Source: Dehalococcoidia bacterium (GTDB taxonomy: Bacteria > Chloroflexota > Dehalococcoidia > GIF9 > UBA5629). From it: a stretch of DNA of 64,000 nucleotides. Positions 17,634 through 30,793 of this stretch are shown piece after piece. The notes below the pieces were generated by a model, which saw nothing but the letters and a program-made list of their open reading frames with translations, had not been told where the DNA came from and searched no databases. The position numbers and the translations under genes were made by a program. Where the stretch lies: positions 38,339 through 102,338 of the forward strand of contig JAFGHL010000093.1 in assembly GCA_016930155.1 (NCBI GenBank), written 5' to 3'. The first letter of the stretch is position 1. Each line of letters starts with the position of its first letter.

Positions 17634-18221
17634 ATGGCTACGACTCAGATAAACAAAGTTCCGCGAAAAGAGCAAATAGTCAATGCTGCGAGGAAACTGG
17701 TCATAGAAGTCGGCAGCGAAAATGTTACAGTCAGGAGGATCGCCGAAGAAGTCGGGTTTACCGAGGCGGCGGTTTACCGGCATTTCAAAAGCAAAAGGGA
17801 CATCCTTTACCTGCTGGTTGAAAATATCGAGCGAAGTTTGCTCTTGGATCTAACGATCAAAATTGATCACCGCGGCGATGTGCTTGAGACTCTCCTTATG
17901 CGCCATCTTTCTGCAATTGAAATGCGGCGCGGCATATCTTTCCAGGTCATCGCGGAAATAATCAGCCTCGGTGACGGCAAATTGAACAGCCGCATATATG
18001 ACACCATTGTAATTTATATAGAAAAACTGAAAACGATATTGCAGAAAGAAATCAGCCGGGGTGAATTGCGGAAAGATGTAGATATCGAGGCAACAGCTTT
18101 CTTGATGTTCAGTGTTATGCAGGGAATATCCAATGTCTGGACCTTGAGCAATTACAGCTTCGACCCCAAGAAGAAGTTCAACGCAGTTCTTAAAACACTG
18201 AGAAAAGGACTGCAGGATTAA
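17634..18221 (+). CDS. TetR/AcrR family transcriptional regulator
   Basis: N-terminal HTH IVNAARKLVIEVGSENVTVRRIAEEVGFTEAAVYRHFKSKRDIL. Confidence 0.85.
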   Translation: MATTQINKVPRKEQIVNAARKLVIEVGSENVTVRRIAEEVGFTEAAVYRHFKSKRDILYLLVENIERSLLLDLTIKIDHRGDVLETLLMRHLSAIEMRRGISFQVIAEIISLGDGKLNSRIYDTIVIYIEKLKTILQKEISRGELRKDVDIEATAFLMFSVMQGISNVWTLSNYSFDPKKKFNAVLKTLRKGLQD

Positions 18222-18234
18222 AGAGATTTAGTGC

Positions 18235-19437
18235 ATGTCTGTCATAGAAGTATTCGGTCTGATTGGAGGTCTGCTTGTCCTGGGGTTTCTGGCGGACTTC
18301 CTTTTTAAGAAAACTTATTTCCCTGACATATTAATTCTTCTGGCGCTGGGTTTTCTGATAGGGCCTGTCCTCAAATGGGTTGATCCTGCTCAGATAGCGC
18401 CTTTTTCTCAGCTGATTGCCAGCCTGGCTCTGGTTGTCATTGTATTTAACGCCGGTGTAGAACTGGAATTTGCCAGGGTTATATCCAGCGCTCCTCGAAC
18501 GCTGATCCTAGTATTTCTTGGCGTGTCATTCAGCATGGTGGCCGTAGCTGCCCCGGCCTATTATCTACTGGGCTGGAAGCTAATGGACAGCATCCTCCTC
18601 GGAACTATCGTGGGGGGGACGAGCTCGGCCATAGTAATGCCGCTTATGAGCCGGGCCAGGGTGCCTGAACAGGTTTCTACCCTGCTGTATCTTGAGTCCG
18701 TATTTAACAGCCCGGTTATTATCGTGATAGCGCTGGTGCTACTGGAATCCATTGTAGCCGGGGAGGCAGGCATTTCGCTATCAACTGTCGGCGTAGGTAT
18801 AGTTACACAATTTCTTTTAGGGCTATCCGTGGGAATAATTGCAGGCTTGTTTTGGCTGTGGATACTGACGTTGCTGCAAAACGAAGACTACAACGATATT
18901 GTTACCCTGGCAATTGTATTTCTTCTTTATTATGCCGTTGAACAAATAAACGGCAGTGGTGTTATAGCCGCTCTGGTCTTCGGTTTAATTCTGGGAAACG
19001 GAGTAGCAGCAGGTAAAATGCTTAAACTGAAATGCACAGCTGAAGCTACCGGCATTATGAAGAAATTTACTGCTGAAATTTATTTCTTTATAAAAACGTT
19101 CTTCTTTATATATCTCGGGCTAATAATCTCCTTCAAAGATCCAATGTTGGTCATACTGGGCGTCGTTTTCTCACTGATATTGGTGCTGGCACGATATTTC
19201 GCAGTACTTCTCACCTCTATTGGTAATCATCCGCTGTTCTCACACAGGGGTATACTGGCGACAATGTTGGCCAGAGGGGAGTCGGCGGCTGTCCTCGTAC
19301 AGATAGTAATTGCCGCAGGTATAATAAATGCTGCCGTTTATCCCGATATGGTTATGTCCATTATTATTACTACGGTCATCATATCAGCTCTAAGTGTCCT
19401 TATTTATGGCAGAAACACAGATGAAGAAGCAACTTGA
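18235..19437 (+). CDS. Cation:proton antiporter (Na+/H+ exchanger family)
   Basis: 400 aa with roughly 11-12 hydrophobic segments. The N-terminus LADFLFKKTYFPDILILLALGFLIGP is typical of CPA-family exchangers. Confidence 0.75.
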   Translation: MSVIEVFGLIGGLLVLGFLADFLFKKTYFPDILILLALGFLIGPVLKWVDPAQIAPFSQLIASLALVVIVFNAGVELEFARVISSAPRTLILVFLGVSFSMVAVAAPAYYLLGWKLMDSILLGTIVGGTSSAIVMPLMSRARVPEQVSTLLYLESVFNSPVIIVIALVLLESIVAGEAGISLSTVGVGIVTQFLLGLSVGIIAGLFWLWILTLLQNEDYNDIVTLAIVFLLYYAVEQINGSGVIAALVFGLILGNGVAAGKMLKLKCTAEATGIMKKFTAEIYFFIKTFFFIYLGLIISFKDPMLVILGVVFSLILVLARYFAVLLTSIGNHPLFSHRGILATMLARGESAAVLVQIVIAAGIINAAVYPDMVMSIIITTVIISALSVLIYGRNTDEEAT

Positions 19438-19597
19438 TCAAATCCAACCTGAACCGATAATCCTACGCTATACAATATTGTCACTTACAGCCGAGGCACG
19501 GATTTGAAGAAAATTGTAAAATGTCCCTGGCTTAAATGCTGAAACCAATGTGCAGCAATAGAAAATTGATCACGTTGGAGAAAGGTCACTACATATA

Positions 19598-20860
19598 ATG
19601 CATGATGCAGCTCTTGTCATCGGATTAGTCGGAGTACTGATCTTTGCCGCCCATCTGTTCGAGGCGATATTCAGGCACACCAGGATACCGGATGTACTGC
19701 CCCTGGTGGTCATCGGCATCCTGCTGGGGCCCCTTTTAGGCATAGCCACGCCTACGAGTTTCGGTGCGGTTGGTCCCATCTTCACTGTAGTCACCTTCGT
19801 GTTAATCCTGTTCGAAGCAGGAACTGGCCTCAGCATTTCGTCTTTGCGGAAAACTTATAAAGAGACGTTAATACTGACTACAGTTACCTTCATATTGAAC
19901 GTGGCGCTGATCGGCGTTGCCGCCCATTATCTGACGGGATTGGGATGGGTCAGGTCATTTATTCTCGCATCGGTAGTAGGGGGAATATCGTCCGCCATTA
20001 TAGCGCCCATGCTGGGTCAACTTAATATGCAGGCAGATGGGAAGGCCGTACTGCTATTGGAATCATCGATTACCGATGTATTTTGTGTGATAGCTGCCCT
20101 CAGTTTTATTGACATTTCCGACCTTGGCGATATAACGCAGTTTGATATCGGGCTTGCGATGGGTAAGATGATTGCGTCATTTTTACTTGCTGCCATGATG
20201 GGCACCGTCGGAGCATTCGGCTGGTCATATATATTCAACAAAGTGCGTGGCCTGCAAAACTCGATGTTCACCACCGCGGCCATTGTTTTCGTTATCTTCG
20301 GCCTCGCTGAATGGCTGGGTTACAGCGGCGCGATAGCGGCCCTGGCCTTTGGCATCACGCTGGGAAACATCAGTTCATTGAGATTGCCCAAGCTTTATAG
20401 TGGTTTTAATACCGACTTCAGCGGCCTTAATATCTCGGAGAGAGCGTTCTTTGCTGAGCTGGTATTCATTCTTAAAACGTTTTTCTTCGTCTATATCGGT
20501 ATATCCCTGCAACTGGCGAACTGGTGGCTGATAGTGGTTGGACTTATTCTGACCGTCCTCATTTTCATAATACGCCCGCCGGTTGTGAAATTCACTGTGC
20601 ATAAATCCACGCCGGTGACGGATGCCTCGATGCTGGCGATTGTTATTCCCCGGGGACTGGCGGCGGCCGTCCTCGCGTCCATCCCTTTTCAACAGGGCAT
20701 GGAGGGCGGGGATATCATCCAGAATGTTGCGTATGCAATAATATTGGTCAGCATCATTATCACTTCTTTGCTCGTTTTACTCGTCGATAAAACCCGATTC
20801 AGCAGATTCTATGCCTGGTTTTTTTCCAATCTCGGAAAACAATCTAAAGCTGTTGATTAA
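19598..20860 (+). CDS. Cation:proton antiporter (paralog)
   Basis: 420 aa and polytopic. Clear similarity to the previous gene (LFEAIFRHTRIPDVLPLVVIGILLGP, LESSITDVF, FILKTFFFVYIG). Confidence 0.75.
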   Translation: MHDAALVIGLVGVLIFAAHLFEAIFRHTRIPDVLPLVVIGILLGPLLGIATPTSFGAVGPIFTVVTFVLILFEAGTGLSISSLRKTYKETLILTTVTFILNVALIGVAAHYLTGLGWVRSFILASVVGGISSAIIAPMLGQLNMQADGKAVLLLESSITDVFCVIAALSFIDISDLGDITQFDIGLAMGKMIASFLLAAMMGTVGAFGWSYIFNKVRGLQNSMFTTAAIVFVIFGLAEWLGYSGAIAALAFGITLGNISSLRLPKLYSGFNTDFSGLNISERAFFAELVFILKTFFFVYIGISLQLANWWLIVVGLILTVLIFIIRPPVVKFTVHKSTPVTDASMLAIVIPRGLAAAVLASIPFQQGMEGGDIIQNVAYAIILVSIIITSLLVLLVDKTRFSRFYAWFFSNLGKQSKAVD

Positions 20861-21148
20861 CCCGGGCGGTGGTGCAGTTACCGGGCAGAAATACGGCCGG
20901 TAACCCACCTGTTGAAAACAAAAATATATTTAATAGTGTAAAATAGTATGTAACCGTTCACTAACCTATTCCCGGATACAAAACGGATATACAGCTCCAT
21001 ACCGATGACCGGTAATCTACATCCAAATATCTTCCAACATCTATCCATGACAAAGCGTTGCGGCTGAAGCTCACAGGAAACGGCCTGGCGATAGCCGGGA
21101 AATGTGGATGAAATTGTAGTACTGATCAATTAGAAGGGGAGATGTCCC

Positions 21149-22621
21149 ATGTTTAAGCAAATTGATTTACAGAGACTGGTCAAAGAAAAGCTTGCCGATT
21201 ACGTTTTTGTCGTTGTTTCAAACAGGCAGCCCTACATACATACTTATGTCGGCGATAAAATCGAGTGCTCCGTGCCGGCCAGCGGCCTGACGACGGCACT
21301 TGACCCTGTCATGCAGGCTTGCGGGGGAATCTGGGTAGCTCACGGCAACGGAAACGCCGACAGGGAGGTGGTGGACAGCAAGAACAGGGTATCGGTCCCG
21401 CCTGAATCCGGCAGCTATAAACTCAAGCGTGTATGGTTGTCGGAGGAAGAGGTCGACAGGTATTACCTGGGTTTTTCGAACGAGGCCATGTGGCCGCTCT
21501 GCCATATAGTTTTCCAGCGTCCCAAATTTGATGACGAGGACTGGTATACTTATAAAAACGTCAACAGGCGTTTCGCCGATGCTGTTCTCGATGAAATAGG
21601 GAATCGTAAAGCTTTTGTCTTTATACAGGATTATCATCTCACACTTGTATCGCGGCTGATCAAAGCCAAAAATCCACGAGCCATCACCGCTCAATTCTGG
21701 CACATCCCCTGGCCCAACAGGGAGGCATTCAGGGTCTGTCCATGGCAAAATGAAATACTCTACGGGCTGCTCGGCAATGACCTGCTCGGTTTTCATATTG
21801 CGTACCATCGCCACAACTTCCTCGATACCGTAGACCGGGCACTGGAGTGCAGGATCGATAATGAGAAGTTCTCGGTCACCCACGGCAATCATACAACATA
21901 TGTCAGGCCGTTTCCCATCAGCGTGGATTTTGAGTCCATCACTGAAAGAAGCCAGGCGACTGAAGTTGAACGTGAGATGGCGGCCATTAAAAATAAATAC
22001 GGCATCACAGATGAGATAATCGGTATCGGCCTGGACAGGATCGATTACACCAAGGGCATACCGGAAAGGCTGATGGCCATCGATCAGCTGCTGACCAAAT
22101 ATCCCAAGTACAAGTTCAGCAAAAGAGTGGTCTTTTTTCAACTGGGTGAACCAAGCCGCCTGAAAATCAAGAAATACGAGGATCTTAATGTCGAGATCGA
22201 AAGGCTGATCGCCGATATTAACGGCAGGCATGAGACCGACGGGTGGCGGCCTATAATATATATTAAGGAGCATAAATCGCCCGTTACATTGCTGGCGTTT
22301 AACAGGCTTGCGCACTTCTGCCTTGTCAGCTCCCTCCATGATGGTATGAACCTGGTCGCGAAGGAGTTCATATCCAGCAGGTTGGATGGGGACGGTGTCC
22401 TTATTTTGAGCCGGTTTACCGGCGCATCCAGGGAGCTGGAGGATGCGCTCATGATTAACCCGTTTGCATTGGAAGAGCTCGCAGAAACCATTCAAGCAGC
22501 GATAGAGATGCCTGAAGAGCAGCGTCGTAAGAGGATGGATAGATTGCGCGAAAAAGTTCGCGAATACAATGTCTATCGATGGGCTGCCGATATTATCACG
22601 GCCATGGTAGATATTAAATAA
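21149..22621 (+). CDS. otsA: Alpha,alpha-trehalose-phosphate synthase (GT20)
   Basis: VVVSNRQPY, FSNEAMWPLCH, IQDYHL, HIPWP, LGVDRIDYTKGI-type (GLDRIDYTKGIPERL) and SLHDGMNLVAKE. Confidence 0.9.
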   Translation: MFKQIDLQRLVKEKLADYVFVVVSNRQPYIHTYVGDKIECSVPASGLTTALDPVMQACGGIWVAHGNGNADREVVDSKNRVSVPPESGSYKLKRVWLSEEEVDRYYLGFSNEAMWPLCHIVFQRPKFDDEDWYTYKNVNRRFADAVLDEIGNRKAFVFIQDYHLTLVSRLIKAKNPRAITAQFWHIPWPNREAFRVCPWQNEILYGLLGNDLLGFHIAYHRHNFLDTVDRALECRIDNEKFSVTHGNHTTYVRPFPISVDFESITERSQATEVEREMAAIKNKYGITDEIIGIGLDRIDYTKGIPERLMAIDQLLTKYPKYKFSKRVVFFQLGEPSRLKIKKYEDLNVEIERLIADINGRHETDGWRPIIYIKEHKSPVTLLAFNRLAHFCLVSSLHDGMNLVAKEFISSRLDGDGVLILSRFTGASRELEDALMINPFALEELAETIQAAIEMPEEQRRKRMDRLREKVREYNVYRWAADIITAMVDIK

Positions 22622-22636
22622 ATAGTCTCAGGATAA

Positions 22637-23437
22637 ATGGAATACCTTTTTAACGATTGGAACAGCATCTGGAAGCAGTTGAAGGCCGCGAAACATAAGG
22701 TGATTTTATTCGACTACGACGGCACATTGACACCGATAGTGGACCGGCCGGAGATTGCACGCCTGCCGGGTGAAGTTAAAGTTTTGCTGGAAAAATTGAC
22801 TCACAAGCAGGGCATAACAGTCGGTATTATCAGCGGACGGGCGATCTCGGATATACGGGAGAAGGTAGGCATAGACAGTATTATTTTCGCCGGAAATCAC
22901 GGTTTGGAGATCGAGGGGCCGGGCATAAGGTTTATCCATCCTCTGACCGATGAAATTGAATCGCTGATGCATGTTATAGGTATTGTTTTAACCAAGGCCC
23001 TGTCCAGAATAAGAGGAGCGATGGTCGAAGATAAAGGCCTGAGCCTCAGCGTTCATTACAGGCAGGTTGATTCCGAGCAACTGCCGCAGGTCGACGCCAT
23101 ATTTAACAATACCGTTGATATCGGCAGAAAGAGGGGCAAGATCAGGACTTCATCGGGGAAAAAAGTGCACGAGGTAAGACCCGCCGTACCCTGGAACAAA
23201 GGAAAGGCTGTGCAGATGATCATGGAGAAGTTCCTTCCTAAAAATGTGCGAGGTTCATATCTATCCATGTATGTCGGGGATGATTTAACGGATGAGGATG
23301 CTTTTCAGGCGATCAACAATGCAGGAGGGATATCGGTATTCGTTGGAGATGCCGGTCAAAAGTCCGCCGCCGCATATTATTTAAATGATACGTCAGAGGT
23401 AAGCAGTTTACTTGCTGAAGTACTTAAGATTGCGTAG
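22637..23437 (+). CDS. otsB: Trehalose-6-phosphate phosphatase (HAD family)
   Basis: The HAD motif I LFDYDGTL, ISGR, and the GDDLTDEDAF motif. Confidence 0.85.
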   Translation: MEYLFNDWNSIWKQLKAAKHKVILFDYDGTLTPIVDRPEIARLPGEVKVLLEKLTHKQGITVGIISGRAISDIREKVGIDSIIFAGNHGLEIEGPGIRFIHPLTDEIESLMHVIGIVLTKALSRIRGAMVEDKGLSLSVHYRQVDSEQLPQVDAIFNNTVDIGRKRGKIRTSSGKKVHEVRPAVPWNKGKAVQMIMEKFLPKNVRGSYLSMYVGDDLTDEDAFQAINNAGGISVFVGDAGQKSAAAYYLNDTSEVSSLLAEVLKIA

Positions 23438-23446
23438 GATAAAAAT

Positions 23447-24820
23447 ATGATTGAATGGTTTCAACAAAACTGGCTGCTTGTAGTGGTGCCGCTTGCGCTG
23501 TTTCTGGCCTTCTGTATTATCGGCTTGTGGGCGAGACGCGTTCTCTATTTCAATCTGGACAGGCACCTGACCAGATCGGGATGGGGTGGCCGGGATGTGC
23601 TTATTCAGACTTCACGCGGGCCTTTCTTCTTCTGGTTCGTTCTGCTCGGTTTATACGTTGCTATAGCATTCTCCAGCATCCAGGATGACCACAAGGCCCT
23701 GATCATCAAAATCATCGCCAGCGTATTCATTATCTCCATAATCTGGCTGCTTATCATCCTCAGCGAAAGGCTGCTGAGCATTTACCTGAGCGAATACAAA
23801 AGCGTAGAAAGGACTGCGAAACATGTGATGACCGCTCTGCGTTCAACGCTTATTATCATCGGATTATTGATACTGCTTGATTACTGGGGCTGGCCGCTCA
23901 CACCCTTAATACTGCTGATCGCCGTAGTCATGCTTGTAGTCATCATAGCCTCACGTGACGCGATACTGAATATTTTCTCGGGATTCGAGATCTCAGCCAG
24001 CCGTCTGGTTAAAGAGGGTGACTTTATTAAAATCGGCTCCGGCGACGCAGGCTATGTGACCGATATGGGATGGAGAAATCTAATCGTCAGGACACCCGAT
24101 CAACACACCATCGTAATACCGAATAGCAAGCTGGTCAGGGAAACCATCGTCAATTATGGCCGCCCGCTGAAAAAAACTGAGGAGCCGTTCCATTTCTATA
24201 CCAGGCTTAGTCTCAAGGAGCTGACCGGGCTGAAAGCAACGAATTTGATCGCACTGGTAAATATACTCAAGGCGGCGCCGGACTCTATAGTCTATTACCA
24301 CACGCATCATTTTCTGGAGGAGTTCCAGTACCTTACGCCTGAGCCCGCCAATGATTTCGCCTTATGGATCGGCGATGCGCTGGACAATCCTGTGTTGTCT
24401 GAAAAACTCGCCAATATCGACACCTTTGAGTTCACCAGCCTGGGCTCTTTAAAGGCCGCATTGATCTCGGTTATCGAGCAGTATATGGCAGAGAATCCGG
24501 ATATAAGGTTTACCCAGGCCGAGCGCGATTTTCATTTCATTAAAGTAGTCAACGTCATCGCGCCGACACCTTACTTCGCCTCCGACCTGCGCGAGTTCGT
24601 CGAGGTGCTGCGCAAGATTACTCTGGATTCGCTTTACTATCATGTATTCGAATCGAGGTTGAGGCTGCAAAGACGTTCCAACGATTTCTCCGTATGGATC
24701 AGGGACTCATTTGAGGAGGATGATCTTGCTGAGAAGATCGACAATCTCGTGCCTTATACTACAACCCTCGAGGGTTTAAGGTCAGTCATTATTCAGCTCA
24801 TCGAGAAACGAATTAAGTAG
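23447..24820 (+). CDS. MscS-type mechanosensitive channel fused to two tandem copies of a ~100-aa uncharacterised domain (DUF5752-like)
   Basis: TM helices followed by the MscS beta-domain (GDFIKIGSGDAGYVTDMGWRNLIVRTPDQHTIVIPNSKL). Two repeats follow, each with FHF...YYH...NDF.(L/V)WI...L.EK. Confidence 0.75.
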   Translation: MIEWFQQNWLLVVVPLALFLAFCIIGLWARRVLYFNLDRHLTRSGWGGRDVLIQTSRGPFFFWFVLLGLYVAIAFSSIQDDHKALIIKIIASVFIISIIWLLIILSERLLSIYLSEYKSVERTAKHVMTALRSTLIIIGLLILLDYWGWPLTPLILLIAVVMLVVIIASRDAILNIFSGFEISASRLVKEGDFIKIGSGDAGYVTDMGWRNLIVRTPDQHTIVIPNSKLVRETIVNYGRPLKKTEEPFHFYTRLSLKELTGLKATNLIALVNILKAAPDSIVYYHTHHFLEEFQYLTPEPANDFALWIGDALDNPVLSEKLANIDTFEFTSLGSLKAALISVIEQYMAENPDIRFTQAERDFHFIKVVNVIAPTPYFASDLREFVEVLRKITLDSLYYHVFESRLRLQRRSNDFSVWIRDSFEEDDLAEKIDNLVPYTTTLEGLRSVIIQLIEKRIK

Positions 24821-24828
24821 GAAACACC

Positions 24829-26076
24829 ATGAATGATACGGTAATCAGCCATTATAAGACCAGGTTAGAGGAGTACCAGCCGATCGTAGGCAGTAATATA
24901 ATCGATGAACTGAAGCTACTTGGTTCACACCTTGCCGGCAGGAAGGTACAAAACATCAATTCCACATTCTCCGGCGGCGGCGTGGCGGAGATACTGGCGC
25001 GTATCGTCCCGCTTCTGCAACAACTGGGCATCGATGCCACCTGGGATGTGATCCAGGGTGACGATGCATTTTTCAATGTTACCAAGAAATTCCACAACGC
25101 CCTGCACGGTAGGGATGAGAGCATCACCACGGACGACCTGGATATCTTCATGGAGACAAGTCGCAGGAACAACGAAAGCACGGCTTTAGATGCGGACATA
25201 TTCTATATCCATGATCCGCAACCCATCATGCTTATCGAGAGAAAAAAATCGCTGGGCGGCAAATGGATCTGGCGTTGTCATGTCGACGTTTCGCATCCGG
25301 ATAAAGTGGTGTGGAAATTCTTAAGAAAATATGTGGTTGGATACGATGCCACGGTATTCTCTTCCCCCGAATTTTCTCAGCAGTTGCCATCCCGGCAATA
25401 CATGATCTCCCCTTCCATCGATCCGCTGAGCGATAAAAACAGGGAGATATCGCAATCTGTAATTCAATCGGTACTGGACAAATACGGCCTGGACAACGGC
25501 AAGCCGATGGTGGTTCAAATATCCCGTTTTGATTATTTAAAAGACCCGCTGGGCGTTATACAGGCTTTCAGGATGGTCAGGAAAGGCATCGACTGCCAGT
25601 TGGTCCTGGCTGGAGGAACGGCCACCGACGATCCAGAGTCGACTCAGGTGCTGGAAGAAGTCAGGGAGAATGCCGGCAATGACCCGGATATCAAGATACT
25701 CCCCATCCCACCCGGCAGCGACCTTGAGATTAACGCTTTGCAGAGGGCCGCCACAGTGGTGTTTCAAAAATCGCTCAAAGAGGGCTTCGGCCTGACTATC
25801 AGCGAAGCGCTATGGAAAAGCAAGCCCGTGGTGGCGACCGCCGTGGGGGGAATACCGCAGCAGGTAAGAAACAAGGTAACAGGGCTTCTCTGCCATAGCG
25901 TCGACGGCGCGGCCTATGCTCTGAAGCAGTTGCTGAGCAATCCCGACTACGCCGCATGGCTGGGTAAAAACGGACATGAGCATGTGAAACAGAACTTCCT
26001 AATAACCCGGCATGTAAAAGAATACCTTCTTCTATTCTTAGCCGTGGATAATCCGTCAGAAATCATAAATCTGTAG
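24829..26076 (+). CDS. treT: Trehalose glycosyltransferring synthase TreT (GT4)
   Basis: INSTFSGGGVAEIL...FFNVTKKFHNALHG...HDPQP...WRCHVD...SPSIDPLSDKN...QISRFDYLKDP...SLKEGFGLTISEALWKSKPVV closely follows the archaeal TreT sequences I recall. Confidence 0.8.
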   Translation: MNDTVISHYKTRLEEYQPIVGSNIIDELKLLGSHLAGRKVQNINSTFSGGGVAEILARIVPLLQQLGIDATWDVIQGDDAFFNVTKKFHNALHGRDESITTDDLDIFMETSRRNNESTALDADIFYIHDPQPIMLIERKKSLGGKWIWRCHVDVSHPDKVVWKFLRKYVVGYDATVFSSPEFSQQLPSRQYMISPSIDPLSDKNREISQSVIQSVLDKYGLDNGKPMVVQISRFDYLKDPLGVIQAFRMVRKGIDCQLVLAGGTATDDPESTQVLEEVRENAGNDPDIKILPIPPGSDLEINALQRAATVVFQKSLKEGFGLTISEALWKSKPVVATAVGGIPQQVRNKVTGLLCHSVDGAAYALKQLLSNPDYAAWLGKNGHEHVKQNFLITRHVKEYLLLFLAVDNPSEIINL

Positions 26077-26439: not shown

Positions 26440-27633
26440 CTATTTAATCAGCCTGCGCGCCTCAGCCTCCACAGTCCTGTAAACATCTCTTAAAGGGACG
26501 CCCTTGCCGGCAGCTATCTTTTTGCATTCATCGTATTCAGGGGAGACACTGACAATTTCATCCTCGAAGCGTTTAACCTTTACCCTGACCTTGCCATAGC
26601 TCGATTCAAACTCGACGATATCGCGATCGGCGATGTGCCTGTACACAGGCCGGACCCTTATGCCCAGCGTTGACGTTTCGCGCATGATGGTTTCCGCCAG
26701 CTTCGACTCGGCATCAGCGGGGGAAAGCACGCTCATCATCACAGCCGGACGGTTCTTCTTCATCTGAATGTGTGTGAACCAGACATCCAGCGCGCCCTGC
26801 GCGAACAACCTCTCCATCACATAGTCGTAAATCTGCGGGTTCATATCGTCGATATTCGTCTCCAGCAGCACCATACTCTCATGACCGTTATGTTCAGACG
26901 ACTTCCCTATCCACAATCGCATGATATTGGGGTACTCATCTGCATTCATGCTGCCTGCGCCGTAGCCGACCTTTTCCAGGTTCAGCCCCGGCCGGCTAAA
27001 AGCAGCCAGCGTTGTTACGATTGCAGCGCCGGTGGGCGTCACCAGCTCCCTCCCCTGCATGGCAGCATGACAGGGTTTCACCACAGGCGCCTGCCTGCGG
27101 GCTATAAGTTCTATGGTAGCCGGCGCGGGCAAAGGCAGCGCGCCGTGGCGGCACTCGACCGAGCCTTCCGCCACAGGAAACGGCGACGCATAACTCCGAT
27201 TTATCCCCATTAGGCCCAACCCGATCACTGTTCCCACTATATCCACGATGGAATCCACCGATCCGATCTCGTGAAAGTGCACCAGCTCCAGCTTCGTCCC
27301 GTGGATTTTAGCCTCCACCTCTCCCATGTTACGAAAGATATCCAGCGCCTTTTTCTTTAATTCATCGCCCAGCCGGCTGCCTGCGATCAAATCCACTATA
27401 TCGCTGTAGGAGCGGTCGGGTTGCTTAACCCCTTCATCAAGTATGACCCTGGCCCATGTCGCTCTCAGGGCGCCTCTTTTGACCTTTTCAGCCGTGATCC
27501 TGTATCCCTCCAAAGGGAGCTTGGCCAGTTCTTTCTCAAGGTCCGCCCTGGGCAGCCCCGCATCCATCAATGCGCCCAGTATCATATCGCCGCTGCAGCC
27601 GGCGTAAAGGTCGAAATATGCTGTATTACCCAT
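26440..27633 (-). CDS. larC: Nickel-pincer cofactor biosynthesis protein LarC (nickel insertion; DUF111), uninterrupted
   Basis: N-terminus YFDLYAGCSGDMILGALMDAGL and HFHEIGSVDSIVDIVG. Confidence 0.9.
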   Translation of the reverse strand: MGNTAYFDLYAGCSGDMILGALMDAGLPRADLEKELAKLPLEGYRITAEKVKRGALRATWARVILDEGVKQPDRSYSDIVDLIAGSRLGDELKKKALDIFRNMGEVEAKIHGTKLELVHFHEIGSVDSIVDIVGTVIGLGLMGINRSYASPFPVAEGSVECRHGALPLPAPATIELIARRQAPVVKPCHAAMQGRELVTPTGAAIVTTLAAFSRPGLNLEKVGYGAGSMNADEYPNIMRLWIGKSSEHNGHESMVLLETNIDDMNPQIYDYVMERLFAQGALDVWFTHIQMKKNRPAVMMSVLSPADAESKLAETIMRETSTLGIRVRPVYRHIADRDIVEFESSYGKVRVKVKRFEDEIVSVSPEYDECKKIAAGKGVPLRDVYRTVEAEARRLIK

Positions 27634-27647
27634 TTGAATCCTTGCTT

Positions 27648-28481
27648 TCAGGCAGCCTGCCTGCTCATGCTTCCCATCTGGTAGCCTGTCAGATCGACGG
27701 TGATATGTTTGTAGCCGAGTTTCTTGAGAGCTTCGACGGCCGCCTGCCGGTTGTCCTTCTTTAACAGCGTAGCTAATCCTTTCTGATCGACCTCGATCCT
27801 GGCTATATTACGGTGGTGCCTCAGTCTGACATGCTCGATTCCCAGCCCTTTGATGAAGGCCTCTCCCGACGATACCTTACCTATCAGCTCGCGCGTGATG
27901 GGCATGCGATGGGGTATCCTGGTAGCAAGGCAGGCTATGGCCGGCTTCTTCCAGTTCGGCAGCCCCCTCTTTCTGGCCAGTGACCTGATCTCCTGCTTGG
28001 TCAGAAATGATTCCGCCAGCGGGCTGCGCACACCGAGCTCGGCTATGGCAACCAGGCCCGGACGAAAATCGCTGAGGTCATCGTAGTTGGTGCCATCGCA
28101 GACATATCTGATGTGCCTGGCGCGAGCCGTCTCATTCAAGATCCCAAGCATGTTCAACTTGCAATGGTAGCAACGGTCTTTGTTATTGACGGCAAAGTCC
28201 GGTATATCAAGCTGGTTGAACTCTACCACCATCAGCTTTAATCTGAGCCCGGACGCCAGCTTTTCAGCAGCATTGACCTCCCCGCCTTCCATCAGAGGCG
28301 ATTTGGCCAGCACGATCAGCACACTGCCTTTCAATATATCGGCGGCCGTTACAGCCAGGTACGTACTATCCACTCCCCCCGAATACGCTACAACAGCGGA
28401 ACCCATCCTGTCGATGATGCCCTCCAGATGGCCGACTTTGTCCGCGGTTTTGCTCTCAATATTCAATTTACGTGCTTTCAT
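27648..28481 (-). CDS. larE: LarE, an ATP-dependent sacrificial sulfur transferase (PP-loop ATPase)
   Basis: PP-loop VVAYSGGVDSTYL. The conserved Cys context in KKPAIACLATRIP. Confidence 0.85.
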   Translation of the reverse strand: MKARKLNIESKTADKVGHLEGIIDRMGSAVVAYSGGVDSTYLAVTAADILKGSVLIVLAKSPLMEGGEVNAAEKLASGLRLKLMVVEFNQLDIPDFAVNNKDRCYHCKLNMLGILNETARARHIRYVCDGTNYDDLSDFRPGLVAIAELGVRSPLAESFLTKQEIRSLARKRGLPNWKKPAIACLATRIPHRMPITRELIGKVSSGEAFIKGLGIEHVRLRHHRNIARIEVDQKGLATLLKKDNRQAAVEALKKLGYKHITVDLTGYQMGSMSRQAA

Positions 28482-29266
28482 CTATTGATCAGGCCGGCAA
28501 GATAGCCTGCATTGAATCCTCCATCGATATTGACCACGGCAATGCCCGGCGCGCAGCTGTTGAGCATGGTCAGCAACGGCGCAATGCCCTTGAAGCAGGC
28601 CCCGTAGCCGACGCTGGTGGGTACCGCTATGACGGGACAGGTCACCAGCCCGCCCAGCACTGCGGGAAGCACGCCATCCATACCGGCCACGGCGATGATC
28701 ACACTGGCGCTCCTGATCTGCTCCATATGATCGAAAAGACGGTGTATGCCGGCCACGCCTACATCGAAAATGCGCTCGACTTTATTGCCCATCATCTCGG
28801 CAGTGACTGCGGCCTCCTCGGCAACGGGTATATCCGCCGTACCTCCCGTTACAATCGTTATGCCCGGTTTGCCCGCCTTTTTCACCCTACTGTCTATGAT
28901 GACTGCGCGGGCGGCTGCGTTATATCTGGCGTCCGGCAAACTCTTCTTGACCGCCCTGAATGCATCGCCATCGACACGTGTAATCAACACCCTGCCCGAA
29001 TGCGCTGCCAGACTATTTGCAATGCTGACCAGTTGCTCACGGGTCTTGCCCGGCCCGAAGACTACCTCGGGAAAGCCCGTGCGCAGGCTGCGGTGGTGGT
29101 CGAGCTTGGCATGCATCATATCTTCGTAAGGCAGGACGCTTAGTTGACTGACTGCATCCTGCACAGACAACTCGCCAGACCTGACCTTCTTGAGCAAACC
29201 GGTCACCCATCGTTGACTAAACTTCTGTCCGCCCGACTTAGTCTCTTGATAATCGCCTTTTCTCAT
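28478..29266 (-). CDS. larB: LarB, a nicotinic acid adenine dinucleotide carboxylase/hydrolase (AIR-carboxylase-like)
   Basis: The C-terminal 262 aa of the 636-aa ORF. GITIVTGGTADIPVAEEA...IIAVAGMDGVLPAVLGGLV..PVIAVPTSVGYG. ATG at 29266-29264. Confidence 0.85.
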   Translation of the reverse strand: MRKGDYQETKSGGQKFSQRWVTGLLKKVRSGELSVQDAVSQLSVLPYEDMMHAKLDHHRSLRTGFPEVVFGPGKTREQLVSIANSLAAHSGRVLITRVDGDAFRAVKKSLPDARYNAAARAVIIDSRVKKAGKPGITIVTGGTADIPVAEEAAVTAEMMGNKVERIFDVGVAGIHRLFDHMEQIRSASVIIAVAGMDGVLPAVLGGLVTCPVIAVPTSVGYGACFKGIAPLLTMLNSCAPGIAVVNIDGGFNAGYLAGLINR

Positions 29267-29449
29267 CCATTTTCCCACGCAGAGCGTTATCGTAAGTATA
29301 ACGCAGCCAAAGATGCAGTACAATATGGACGCTGAAGCTGCGGTTAAACAATTTATACAAAAAGGTTGTTTTTTGTAACACCGTGGTTTAAAATGGTGGC
29401 GTCCGCCGCCTGCAAGGCCATCCGGCCAGGCGGATGAAGGGGGGTGAAA

Positions 29450-30793
29450 ATGAGCATACCTAAACTGAGCGACGAGAAGTATAAAGAAGTCATAGCTGCC
29501 TACGAGAAAAAGACCTCTAAATCCAAAAAACTGATCGAAGAATCCCGCAAATATATAGTACCCATGGGCGCACCCGCTTACATGATCTGGCACAGGCCCT
29601 ATCCTCTCTTTATCGACAACGCCAAAGGCTCCAGGCTGTACGACGTGGACGGCAATGAGTACATCGACATGTTCATAGACCAGGGCATTTCCTATATCGG
29701 ACATAAGGCGCCGGCCATCCGCAAGGCCATCGACAAGGCGCTGGATAAATACGGCTTCCACCTGGAGATGTGCGAGGAGCTTGCCACCAGGTGGGCGCAG
29801 AAGGTCATTCAGCATTATCCCTCCATCAAGAAGATCAAAATAGTCAACTCCGGCAACGAGGCCACCGAACTGGTCTGCCAGATCGCGAGGGCCTTCACCG
29901 GAAAAAACAAAATCATCAAATTCGCCGGACACCATCACGGCTGGAACGGCGTGCTGTCCTACGACGCGCTGGCGGCAGGATCGGGCACCCTTTTCACACT
30001 GGGCATACCCAACAACCACTGGGACAACCTGATCAACCTGCCGCCCAACGATATAGCTATCGTAGAGAAGGCTCTTCAGGATAACAAGGACGAGGTGGCG
30101 GCCGTCGTGCTGGAGCCGTTGGGCGCTTCCTCCGGGGCCAAGCCGCTCAACGAAGGTTTCCAGAAGCAATTGCGCGATCTCACGACAAAGTACAACGTGC
30201 TGCTGGCTTTCGACGAGGTGGCCACGAGCTTCAGAGTGGCCATCGGCGGCGCGCAGCAGGTGCTGGGTGTAACTCCGGACCTTACCTGCCTGGGCAAGCC
30301 GATCGGCGGCGGCCTTCCCATCGGAGCGGTGGGCGGGCGCGAGGACGTGATGTCGGTGGTGGGCGCGCTGGACCCCAGGGCCGAGCATTTCGGGCCGCTC
30401 TTCCCCATGGGCTCATTCTGCGCTCACCCGCTGGCCATGGCGGCCGGTATCGCCTTCATCGAGGAGCTCGAGAAAGGCAATTATATACAGAACTCCATCG
30501 ATCGAGCCGCCGACCTGGCCAGGCTGATCAACGAGGTAGCCGCCGGGCTCAAGATGGATGTCTCTGCCCATGCCATCTACAGTATCGTGCACTTCGGCCT
30601 TAACGGAAAGTTCGATATGAGCCAGGTATTGGAGGTCTACGAGTTCGACCTGATGATACGGCTGGCCCTGCTGCTGGGCGATCCGGGCCTGGTGGTGCTG
30701 CCCGGCCATGTTTATATGTCGGGCGTTATGACCGAGAAGGACATACAGAAAAGCCGTCAGGCTTTCGAGACGGCTTTCAGTATCTACAAATAG
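29450..30793 (+). CDS. Class III aminotransferase, a paralog of glutamate-1-semialdehyde aminomutase (HemL-like)
   Basis: IKFAGHHHGW and FDEVATSFRVAIGGAQ...DLTCLGKPIGGGLPIGAVGG, with the PLP lysine in LGK. Parallels the HemL encoded at 46014-47306. GTG at 29444 is an alternative start. Confidence 0.8.
   Translation: MSIPKLSDEKYKEVIAAYEKKTSKSKKLIEESRKYIVPMGAPAYMIWHRPYPLFIDNAKGSRLYDVDGNEYIDMFIDQGISYIGHKAPAIRKAIDKALDKYGFHLEMCEELATRWAQKVIQHYPSIKKIKIVNSGNEATELVCQIARAFTGKNKIIKFAGHHHGWNGVLSYDALAAGSGTLFTLGIPNNHWDNLINLPPNDIAIVEKALQDNKDEVAAVVLEPLGASSGAKPLNEGFQKQLRDLTTKYNVLLAFDEVATSFRVAIGGAQQVLGVTPDLTCLGKPIGGGLPIGAVGGREDVMSVVGALDPRAEHFGPLFPMGSFCAHPLAMAAGIAFIEELEKGNYIQNSIDRAADLARLINEVAAGLKMDVSAHAIYSIVHFGLNGKFDMSQVLEVYEFDLMIRLALLLGDPGLVVLPGHVYMSGVMTEKDIQKSRQAFETAFSIYK

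Follow-up and report, generated by a model that had tools for sequence, protein, structure and literature searches.

Why should a mechanosensitive channel give up part of its own structure for a domain of a quite different family, in the middle of an operon for the synthesis of trehalose? MscS is the textbook emergency valve of bacteria, and the cage that it carries in the cytoplasm counts as an invariable element of its fold. The question is raised by mscS::orfY, a gene in a stretch of 64,000 nucleotides (nt) from an uncultured Dehalococcoidia bacterium (assembly GCA_016930155.1, contig JAFGHL010000093.1, positions 38,339 to 102,338 of the forward strand), which we refer to as the window. Its product of 457 amino acids (aa) consists of an MscS-type channel half (aa 1-245) and a half that belongs to the OrfY, or DUF5752, family (aa 246-457), with the following parts, in which TM stands for transmembrane:

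23447-24820, + strand: the whole mscS::orfY fusion, 457 aa plus stop, 9 nt after otsB and 8 nt before treT
23447-23899, + strand: N-terminal membrane part, aa 1-151, four predicted TM helices (AlphaFold, hydropathy, charge counts and alignments)
23900-23998, + strand: pore-lining helix, TM3a (aa 152-169) and TM3b (aa 170-184), from alignments
23957-24160, + strand: MscS β-domain, aa 171-238 (MS_channel_2nd, PF00924; E = 1.1e-15, 58 bits against a cut-off of 20.2)
24161-24181, + strand: conserved linker RPLKKTE, aa 239-245, with P240 invariant
24182-24517, + strand: OrfY repeat 1, aa 246-357, a long β-hairpin and five helices
24518-24817, + strand: OrfY repeat 2, aa 358-457, with the topology of repeat 1

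The original prediction, made from the DNA and its translation, described an MscS channel whose cytoplasmic end is replaced or extended by a tandem-duplicated domain. All of the motifs it quoted are present in the translation, and its interval begins at codon 246 (24182) and ends at the last base of codon 457 (24817). Between its two options, it is replacement that stands. In a search against solved structures, aa 84-243 align with YnaI, MSL1 and MscS; the MscS homology (Escherichia coli residues 29-185) stops at about residue 185, the end of the β-domain, and the RPLKKTE linker stands where canonical MscS runs on into the α-β domain. Pfam gives no match to that domain (MS_channel_3rd, PF21082) anywhere in the MscS::OrfY protein, and in unfused operon-linked MscS proteins PF21082 begins at aa 251-253, the same junction at which OrfY begins in the fusion. 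Because the homology ends with the β-domain and PF21082 starts at this very junction in the unfused homologues, the α-β domain of the cage and the C-terminal barrel have been replaced by one OrfY/DUF5752 module at the β-domain boundary, not extended by it. That the C-terminus might be a divergent canonical α-β domain is excluded by the missing PF21082 match and by a domain model that fits no MscS structure. Pfam likewise finds no cyclic nucleotide monophosphate (cNMP)-binding domain in the protein.

The assignment of the replacing module to DUF5752, put forward in the original prediction, proved correct: within the 212-aa C-terminal region (24182-24817, codons 246-457), PF19027 matches aa 246-453 over positions 2-208 of a model of 208, with E = 3.3e-61 and 206.7 bits against a cut-off of 23. 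Judged by sequence comparison, the internal repeat is real and well beyond chance (aa 246-358 against aa 358-457, BLASTP E = 6e-12, 28% identity over 100 residues). The idea of a doubled DUF5752 falls, since the two repeats together make up one DUF5752 unit, and the duplication is family-wide, extending to free OrfY proteins and to the crystal structure 4CSO, the OrfY of Thermoproteus tenax. OrfY is, in short, a pseudo-two-fold, tandem-duplicated domain, in which F248-x-F250, H285 and N302-D303-F304..W307 of repeat 1 recur as F362-x-F364, H399 and N412-D413-F414..W417 in repeat 2; across 23 fused and 75 mixed sequences, the F-x-F, H and D-F..W residues show no or almost no variation, and 4CSO has them too.

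AlphaFold, given 75 diverse homologues, modelled aa 240-457 with a predicted local distance difference test (pLDDT) score of 95 and a predicted template modelling (pTM) score of 0.88. Searched with Foldseek, this model matches 4CSO with a template modelling score of 0.83-0.84, a root mean square deviation of 2.7 Å and 26% identity (E = 4e-17), and phmmer reaches the same entry with E = 4e-19. The Foldseek search gave no relative in the Protein Data Bank (PDB) besides 4CSO, the next entry having E = 0.7. The depositors gave the 4CSO molecule the name 'ORFY PROTEIN, TRANSCRIPTION FACTOR'. Our literature search found no paper on DUF5752, on OrfY with T. tenax or trehalose, or relevant to 4CSO, and a paper on trehalose in S. 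acidocaldarius makes no mention of OrfY.

The fusion architecture is widespread, already catalogued in databases and uncharacterised. A HMMER search among 1.84 billion cluster representatives returned 715 DUF5752 clusters; the best 150 comprise 116 free proteins of about 220 aa, which bears out the expectation that the family is mostly stand-alone, and 17 MscS fusions. Further fusions carry an N-terminal trehalose phosphatase (P0205) or a Mak/Pep2-type maltokinase. A word-index search found at least 871 relatives of the full-length MscS::OrfY protein, and all 120 that were listed carry both Pfam domains. Furthermore, relatives are encoded by 559 stretches of species-representative genomes; the 80 best are without exception collinear fusions, and they belong to Dehalococcoidia, other Chloroflexota, Nitrospirota/Thermodesulfovibrionia and Thermodesulfobacteriota. 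In public annotation such proteins go under the name 'DUF5752 family protein' or 'mechanosensitive ion channel family protein', and our literature search found no paper on the MscS::OrfY architecture. Since one identical protein and no fewer than 80 collinear orthologues (454-464 aa) are known, an assembly artefact is ruled out as the source of the open reading frame (ORF).

In a maximum-likelihood tree of the OrfY domain, all 16 fused representatives fall inside one clade of 23 rows, and the maltokinase-OrfY fusions form a separate clade. This is consistent, as far as the sequences go, with an origin of the fusion from a free orfY gene in a single event or in a few events, although the tree comes from a quick IQ-TREE search and the count of fusion events is provisional. 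Mean identity to the MscS::OrfY protein is 68% over the OrfY half and 53% over the channel half, which makes OrfY the better-conserved half of the fusion on this sequence measure.

The clearest regularity of the family lies in its neighbourhood. In 160 of 161 loci overall, a treT homologue follows OrfY directly and on the same strand, irrespective of whether OrfY is fused to MscS (70 of 70 loci), free (72 of 73) or fused to maltokinase (14 of 14), and the same holds in Thermoproteus (four of four), where OrfY is 73-82% identical to the crystallised protein. The trehalose-6-phosphate synthase and phosphatase genes otsA and otsB are almost always within 5-6 kb of OrfY, in variable gene order, and for free OrfY they were found within 5 kb in 42 of 43 loci; the original expectation that DUF5752 lies near trehalose and glycosyltransferase genes thus holds, with treT as the partner to be named. 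Genomically, OrfY behaves like a dedicated partner subunit of TreT. Within the genus of the source genome, the fusion and treT are both present in the same six of 16 species and both absent from the other ten, which indicates that the two form an accessory module, probably a mobile one. Separate full-length MscS genes occur in the same cluster in 24 of 80 free-OrfY operons; because free OrfY and a separate MscS share operons in this way, the fusion can be read, by a Rosetta-stone argument, as joining two operon partners. The structure of OrfY has been solved since 2014, and its link to a channel, together with the pairing with treT, narrows the hypotheses on its function.

The source genome follows the same pattern, with four same-strand genes separated by gaps of 15, 9 and 8 nt that form a tight operon, otsA-otsB-mscS::orfY-treT. 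The three genes around the fusion are:

21149-22621, + strand: otsA, trehalose-6-phosphate synthase of glycosyltransferase family 20 (GT20), first gene of the operon (Pfam Glyco_transf_20, E = 1.8e-118)
22637-23437, + strand: otsB, trehalose-6-phosphate phosphatase, 15 nt after otsA (Pfam Trehalose_PPase, E = 3e-44)
24829-26076, + strand: treT-like trehalose synthase of glycosyltransferase family 4 (GT4), directly after mscS::orfY (Pfam TreT_GT1)

The otsB product scores 167 bits against TIGR00685, for which the cut-off is 68, and the otsA product scores 425-480 bits against the NCBIfam OtsA models, under their equivalog cut-offs. The treT product carries PF21269 (TreT_GT1, E = 1.3e-53) and PF00534 (Glycos_transf_1, E = 1.8e-24) and is 45-47% identical to Thermoproteus TreT homologues; it is best named TreT-like, because its 366 bits against NF041139, the NCBIfam equivalog for Thermococcales TreT, do not reach the cut-off of 775.

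The channel half has kept some hallmarks of MscS and lost others. The membrane part has predicted TM helices at about aa 9-30, 59-76, 87-106 and 131-146, and the loops rich in lysine and arginine at 30-58 and 106-130 are predicted, from hydropathy and charge counts, to be cytoplasmic, giving an N-out, C-in topology. A full-length AlphaFold model (pLDDT 82, pTM 0.57) has five long hydrophobic helices before TM3b, and the protein is a YnaI-like member of the MscS family with five predicted TM helices. TM3b carries an RDAILNIFSG motif that aligns with YnaI and MscS; its N175, nearly invariant, and G179, invariant, are the equivalents of N117 and G121. TM3a (23900-23953, TPLILLIAVVMLVVIIAS) has no glycine, two alanines and 13 bulky aliphatic residues among its 18, and this is a property of the fusions at large: per 18 residues, TM3a has on average 0.22 glycines among 23 fused proteins and 2.91 among 22 unfused operon-linked MscS proteins. 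The TM2/3 model PF21088 has no match in the MscS::OrfY protein, whereas it matches the unfused homologues. In E. coli MscS, alanine in place of G101, G104 and G108 raises the tension needed for opening, as PMC2442180 relates of Edwards et al. 2005. Because TM3a lacks these hallmark glycines, and given that effect in E. coli, the gating of the fused channel is likely to be non-canonical, and the glycine loss suggests that canonical gating has been altered or even lost.

We tentatively infer that OrfY is a regulatory module, a partner of TreT, that couples the channel to the synthesis of trehalose. The protein would form an oligomer of the MscS type, its OrfY modules suspended in the cytoplasm beneath the pore, and OrfY would act there on the trehalose synthase TreT as a regulatory subunit and partner, by analogy with the small regulatory subunits that are encoded beside catalytic ones. 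Grafted onto the channel, OrfY would tether TreT to the valve, or would allow each to sense the state of the other. Under hyperosmotic conditions the channel would be closed and trehalose made, and on downshock the channel would open and trehalose be released, so that one membrane complex would coordinate both; OrfY may also bind a metabolite of the trehalose pathway. A scheme of this kind would extend the stress model put forward for the msc-gt-tpsp operon of T. tenax (PMC3634074), which is a precedent both for regulatory complexes and for a channel gene among trehalose genes. In the genome, neither a trehalase of glycoside hydrolase family 37 (GH37) nor a GH65 enzyme was found, which fits the disposal of trehalose by release rather than breakdown. 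A TreS-like GH13 protein of 541 aa (G000:C109:2000-3457) scores 268 and 77 bits against the TreS N-terminal model, far under the cut-off of 678.

Several points weigh against this reading. Contact between OrfY and TreT is argued from adjacency and co-inheritance, which do not prove contact, and neighbouring genes fuse readily, so that the variety of partners (MscS, maltokinase, trehalose phosphatase) may partly mirror operon order; indeed, the N-terminal fusion partners of OrfY are whatever gene precedes the orfY-treT unit. Both the oligomeric state and a position of OrfY beneath the pore are putative, with a pTM of just 0.57 for the full-length model. Conduction by the pore is not certain, judging from a TM3a without the glycines that normal MscS gating requires. 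The genome also has a single mscL gene (G000:C9:106951-107346, 4.6 kb beyond the end of the window), and MscL could vent trehalose alone. Lastly, the depositors of 4CSO labelled OrfY a transcription factor.

Taken at its word, this last label would make the fusion a membrane-tethered, DNA-binding regulator of the trehalose operon, which we regard as highly improbable: beyond the molecule name of 4CSO, there is no likeness of the fold to DNA-binding proteins, 4CSO itself being the sole PDB match, Pfam found no helix-turn-helix or other DNA-binding domain, and an operator-binding protein would hardly be expected in seven copies beneath a pore or joined to a maltokinase. Appreciably more weight, although still well short of probable, belongs to the ligand-sensor idea of the original prediction, which named trehalose or a nucleotide sugar: OrfY would sense a small molecule (trehalose, trehalose-6-phosphate, glucose or a nucleoside diphosphate-glucose) whose binding biases gating, so that the valve would read the solute pool as well as tension. 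The equivalent conserved polar and aromatic residues of the two repeats (F-x-F, H and N-D-F..W) speak for it, such a mix being typical of sugar-binding sites, as do the match between a pseudo-two-fold fold and a two-fold-symmetric disaccharide, the unique fold, for which Foldseek gave no enzyme or DNA-binding relatives, and the joining of OrfY to several outputs (channel, maltokinase and phosphatase). The conserved residues may, however, form a hydrophobic core rather than line the putative pocket, and the argument for a generic sensor is weakened by fusion partners that all correspond to the gene upstream of orfY in the orfY-treT unit. We favour a protein partner linked to TreT over a free-standing small-molecule sensor because the pairing with treT is near-invariant whatever OrfY is fused to, but the two ideas are compatible, and sensing would fit the favoured model if OrfY were an allosteric subunit.

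Coupling to TreT might also run without any release of solute. In that case the channel half would be a membrane anchor or tension sensor and no release valve, and the signal would pass from the membrane through OrfY to TreT, making the protein a mechanosensitive regulator of an enzyme. The vanished TM3a glycines, the failure of PF21088 to match the fusion and the tension effect of the alanine substitutions as cited in PMC2442180 all lend themselves to this view, as does the presence of MscL as a general valve. Against it, the TM3b motif with N175 and G179 and the β-domain are still conserved, and the fusion is the only MscS-type gene of the genome, its sole PF00924 match (98% completeness). 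Channels without a cage are known as well, with Trypanosoma cruzi MscS structures among the fold matches. The cage-less T. cruzi MscS still conducts. On balance, we consider a channel half that releases nothing unlikely. A further explanation, that OrfY is a passive stand-in for the lost vestibule or a neutral accident of adjacency with no regulatory role, gains from the ease with which adjacent genes fuse and from the phosphatase-OrfY fusion P0205, which is what the gene order otsB-orfY predicts. It does not sit well with the conservation of the OrfY half above that of the channel half, nor with the retention of the fusion, at near-constant length, in hundreds of species of at least three phyla. 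Because about 100 aa of cage were lost in a precise swap, length is near-constant across phyla and the OrfY half is the better conserved, the fusion is not a trivial stop-codon read-through, and we give this explanation only a slight chance. A regulatory partnership with TreT at the channel therefore remains the reading we prefer. Its most elaborate form, a membrane-bound trehalose 'osmostat' in which seven OrfY modules would dock TreT, tension sensed by the channel half and relayed through OrfY would switch the enzyme off or on and bound trehalose would optionally bias the pore, is improbable in our estimation.

Several observations on the surroundings of the operon and on relatives of OrfY stand apart from this argument. 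Directly upstream of the operon, on the same strand, 17634-20860 holds the gene of a TetR-family regulator and a tandem pair of genes for Na+/H+ exchangers (PF00999), and together with the trehalose operon they make up a salt/osmotic stress neighbourhood. Downstream, the minus strand of 26440-30388 encodes, convergently with the operon, LarC (Ni_insertion, E = 7e-134), an ORF without a Pfam match and a protein of 635 aa whose C-terminal domain is AIRC/LarB-like; these lar cofactor genes are unrelated to the trehalose operon. A riboswitch or leader RNA in the 288-nt leader of otsA (20861-21148) was considered and dropped, after a scan of 20800-21200 gave no Rfam match at E values up to 5 and blastn gave no match to the leader among 80 related loci. 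Across the whole window Rfam gave no match at its gathering thresholds, and a promoter and terminator scan gave counts not above those of shuffled sequence.

Two paralogous genes of the same genome each encode a 'half-OrfY', a single repeat of 100-116 aa with an H..NDFxRWV motif, at G000:C102:19655-19954 (1453-1803 of locus L178) and G000:C13:13623-13922 (1501-1803 of locus L179). They score 21-22 bits on PF19027, just below the cut-off, and each is followed by an ORF of 251-263 aa and then by an AAA_5/MoxR-like ATPase, a context that is not one of trehalose. P0196, a protein of 6781 aa in the representative library, has 27 separate stretches that match the YYH..NDFxxW half-domain and appears to be a giant repeat protein of half-OrfY-like units. 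The maltokinase-OrfY fusions (loci L180-L193) come from NC10/Methylomirabilota, Rokubacteria and their relatives, and in three of these loci (L180, L181 and L189) free OrfY with its own treT occurs again some kilobases further on.

The fusion provides a testable idea of how cells link the making and the venting of trehalose, a protective sugar, and this large family of natural cage swaps is a ready-made experiment on the role of the cage. Were the partnership of OrfY and TreT at the channel true, the synthesis and release of a compatible solute would be coupled in one complex, a new principle of osmoregulation, and the model proposed in 2013 for T. tenax would apply beyond a few archaea, to many bacteria with an anaerobic life. 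The osmostat, if true, would be the first tension-to-enzyme transducer of the MscS family and would give the OrfY family its first function.

How the fusion relates to known systems can be set out from each of its halves. The T. tenax OrfY of 4CSO shares its family, fold, tandem repeats and motifs with the C-terminal half, as well as its place directly upstream of treT, but is a free soluble protein of 216 aa, whereas in the fusion OrfY makes up the C-terminal domain of a channel protein in the membrane. The homology of E. coli MscS and YnaI to the fusion spans the TM helices, TM3b and the β-domain, and the predicted N-out/C-in arrangement of five TM helices is like that of YnaI; the fusion differs in having OrfY instead of PF21082 and the C-terminal β-barrel, which form the cytoplasmic cage, and in its glycine-free TM3a. 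In bCNG, with a cNMP-binding domain, and in MscCG, the glutamate exporter of Corynebacterium glutamicum, a module is added after a complete MscS cytoplasmic domain. The added module changes the gating of their MscS core or reserves the channel for a single solute, and the fusion resembles them in concept, yet in the fusion the cage itself is replaced. In the maltokinase-OrfY proteins of NC10/Methylomirabilota and Rokubacteria, OrfY is likewise C-terminal and treT again comes next in all 14 loci, but the N-terminal partner is a soluble Mak/Pep2-type maltokinase, not a channel.

Closest in gene content are the mscS-otsA-otsB-orfY-treT clusters of Omnitrophota and Planctomycetota, which have the same gene set with OrfY as a separate protein. 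Their MscS is homologous to the fusion over aa ~7-237 at 26-33% identity, but is a complete protein of about 350 aa, with all three Pfam MscS domains and a glycine-rich TM3a. The nearest precedent in the literature, and the only paper that our search on TreT and mechanosensitive channels found, is that on the msc-gt-tpsp operon of T. tenax, in which the gene for a mechanosensitive channel shares its transcript with genes for the synthesis of trehalose and with a GT4 gene (Zaparty et al. 2013, PMC3634074). For this system it was proposed that trehalose is made under stress and released through the channel on relief (PMC3634074). The parallel is one of arrangement rather than of parts: the T. 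tenax channel protein has 197 aa and consists of the TM region only, without OrfY or a cytoplasmic domain, the synthase and the phosphatase are fused to each other, and the glycosyltransferase is an activator of this fused enzyme and not TreT. Although the msc-gt-tpsp type of operon was stated to be unique to Thermoproteales (PMC3634074), the otsA-otsB-mscS::orfY-treT type is widespread in bacteria.

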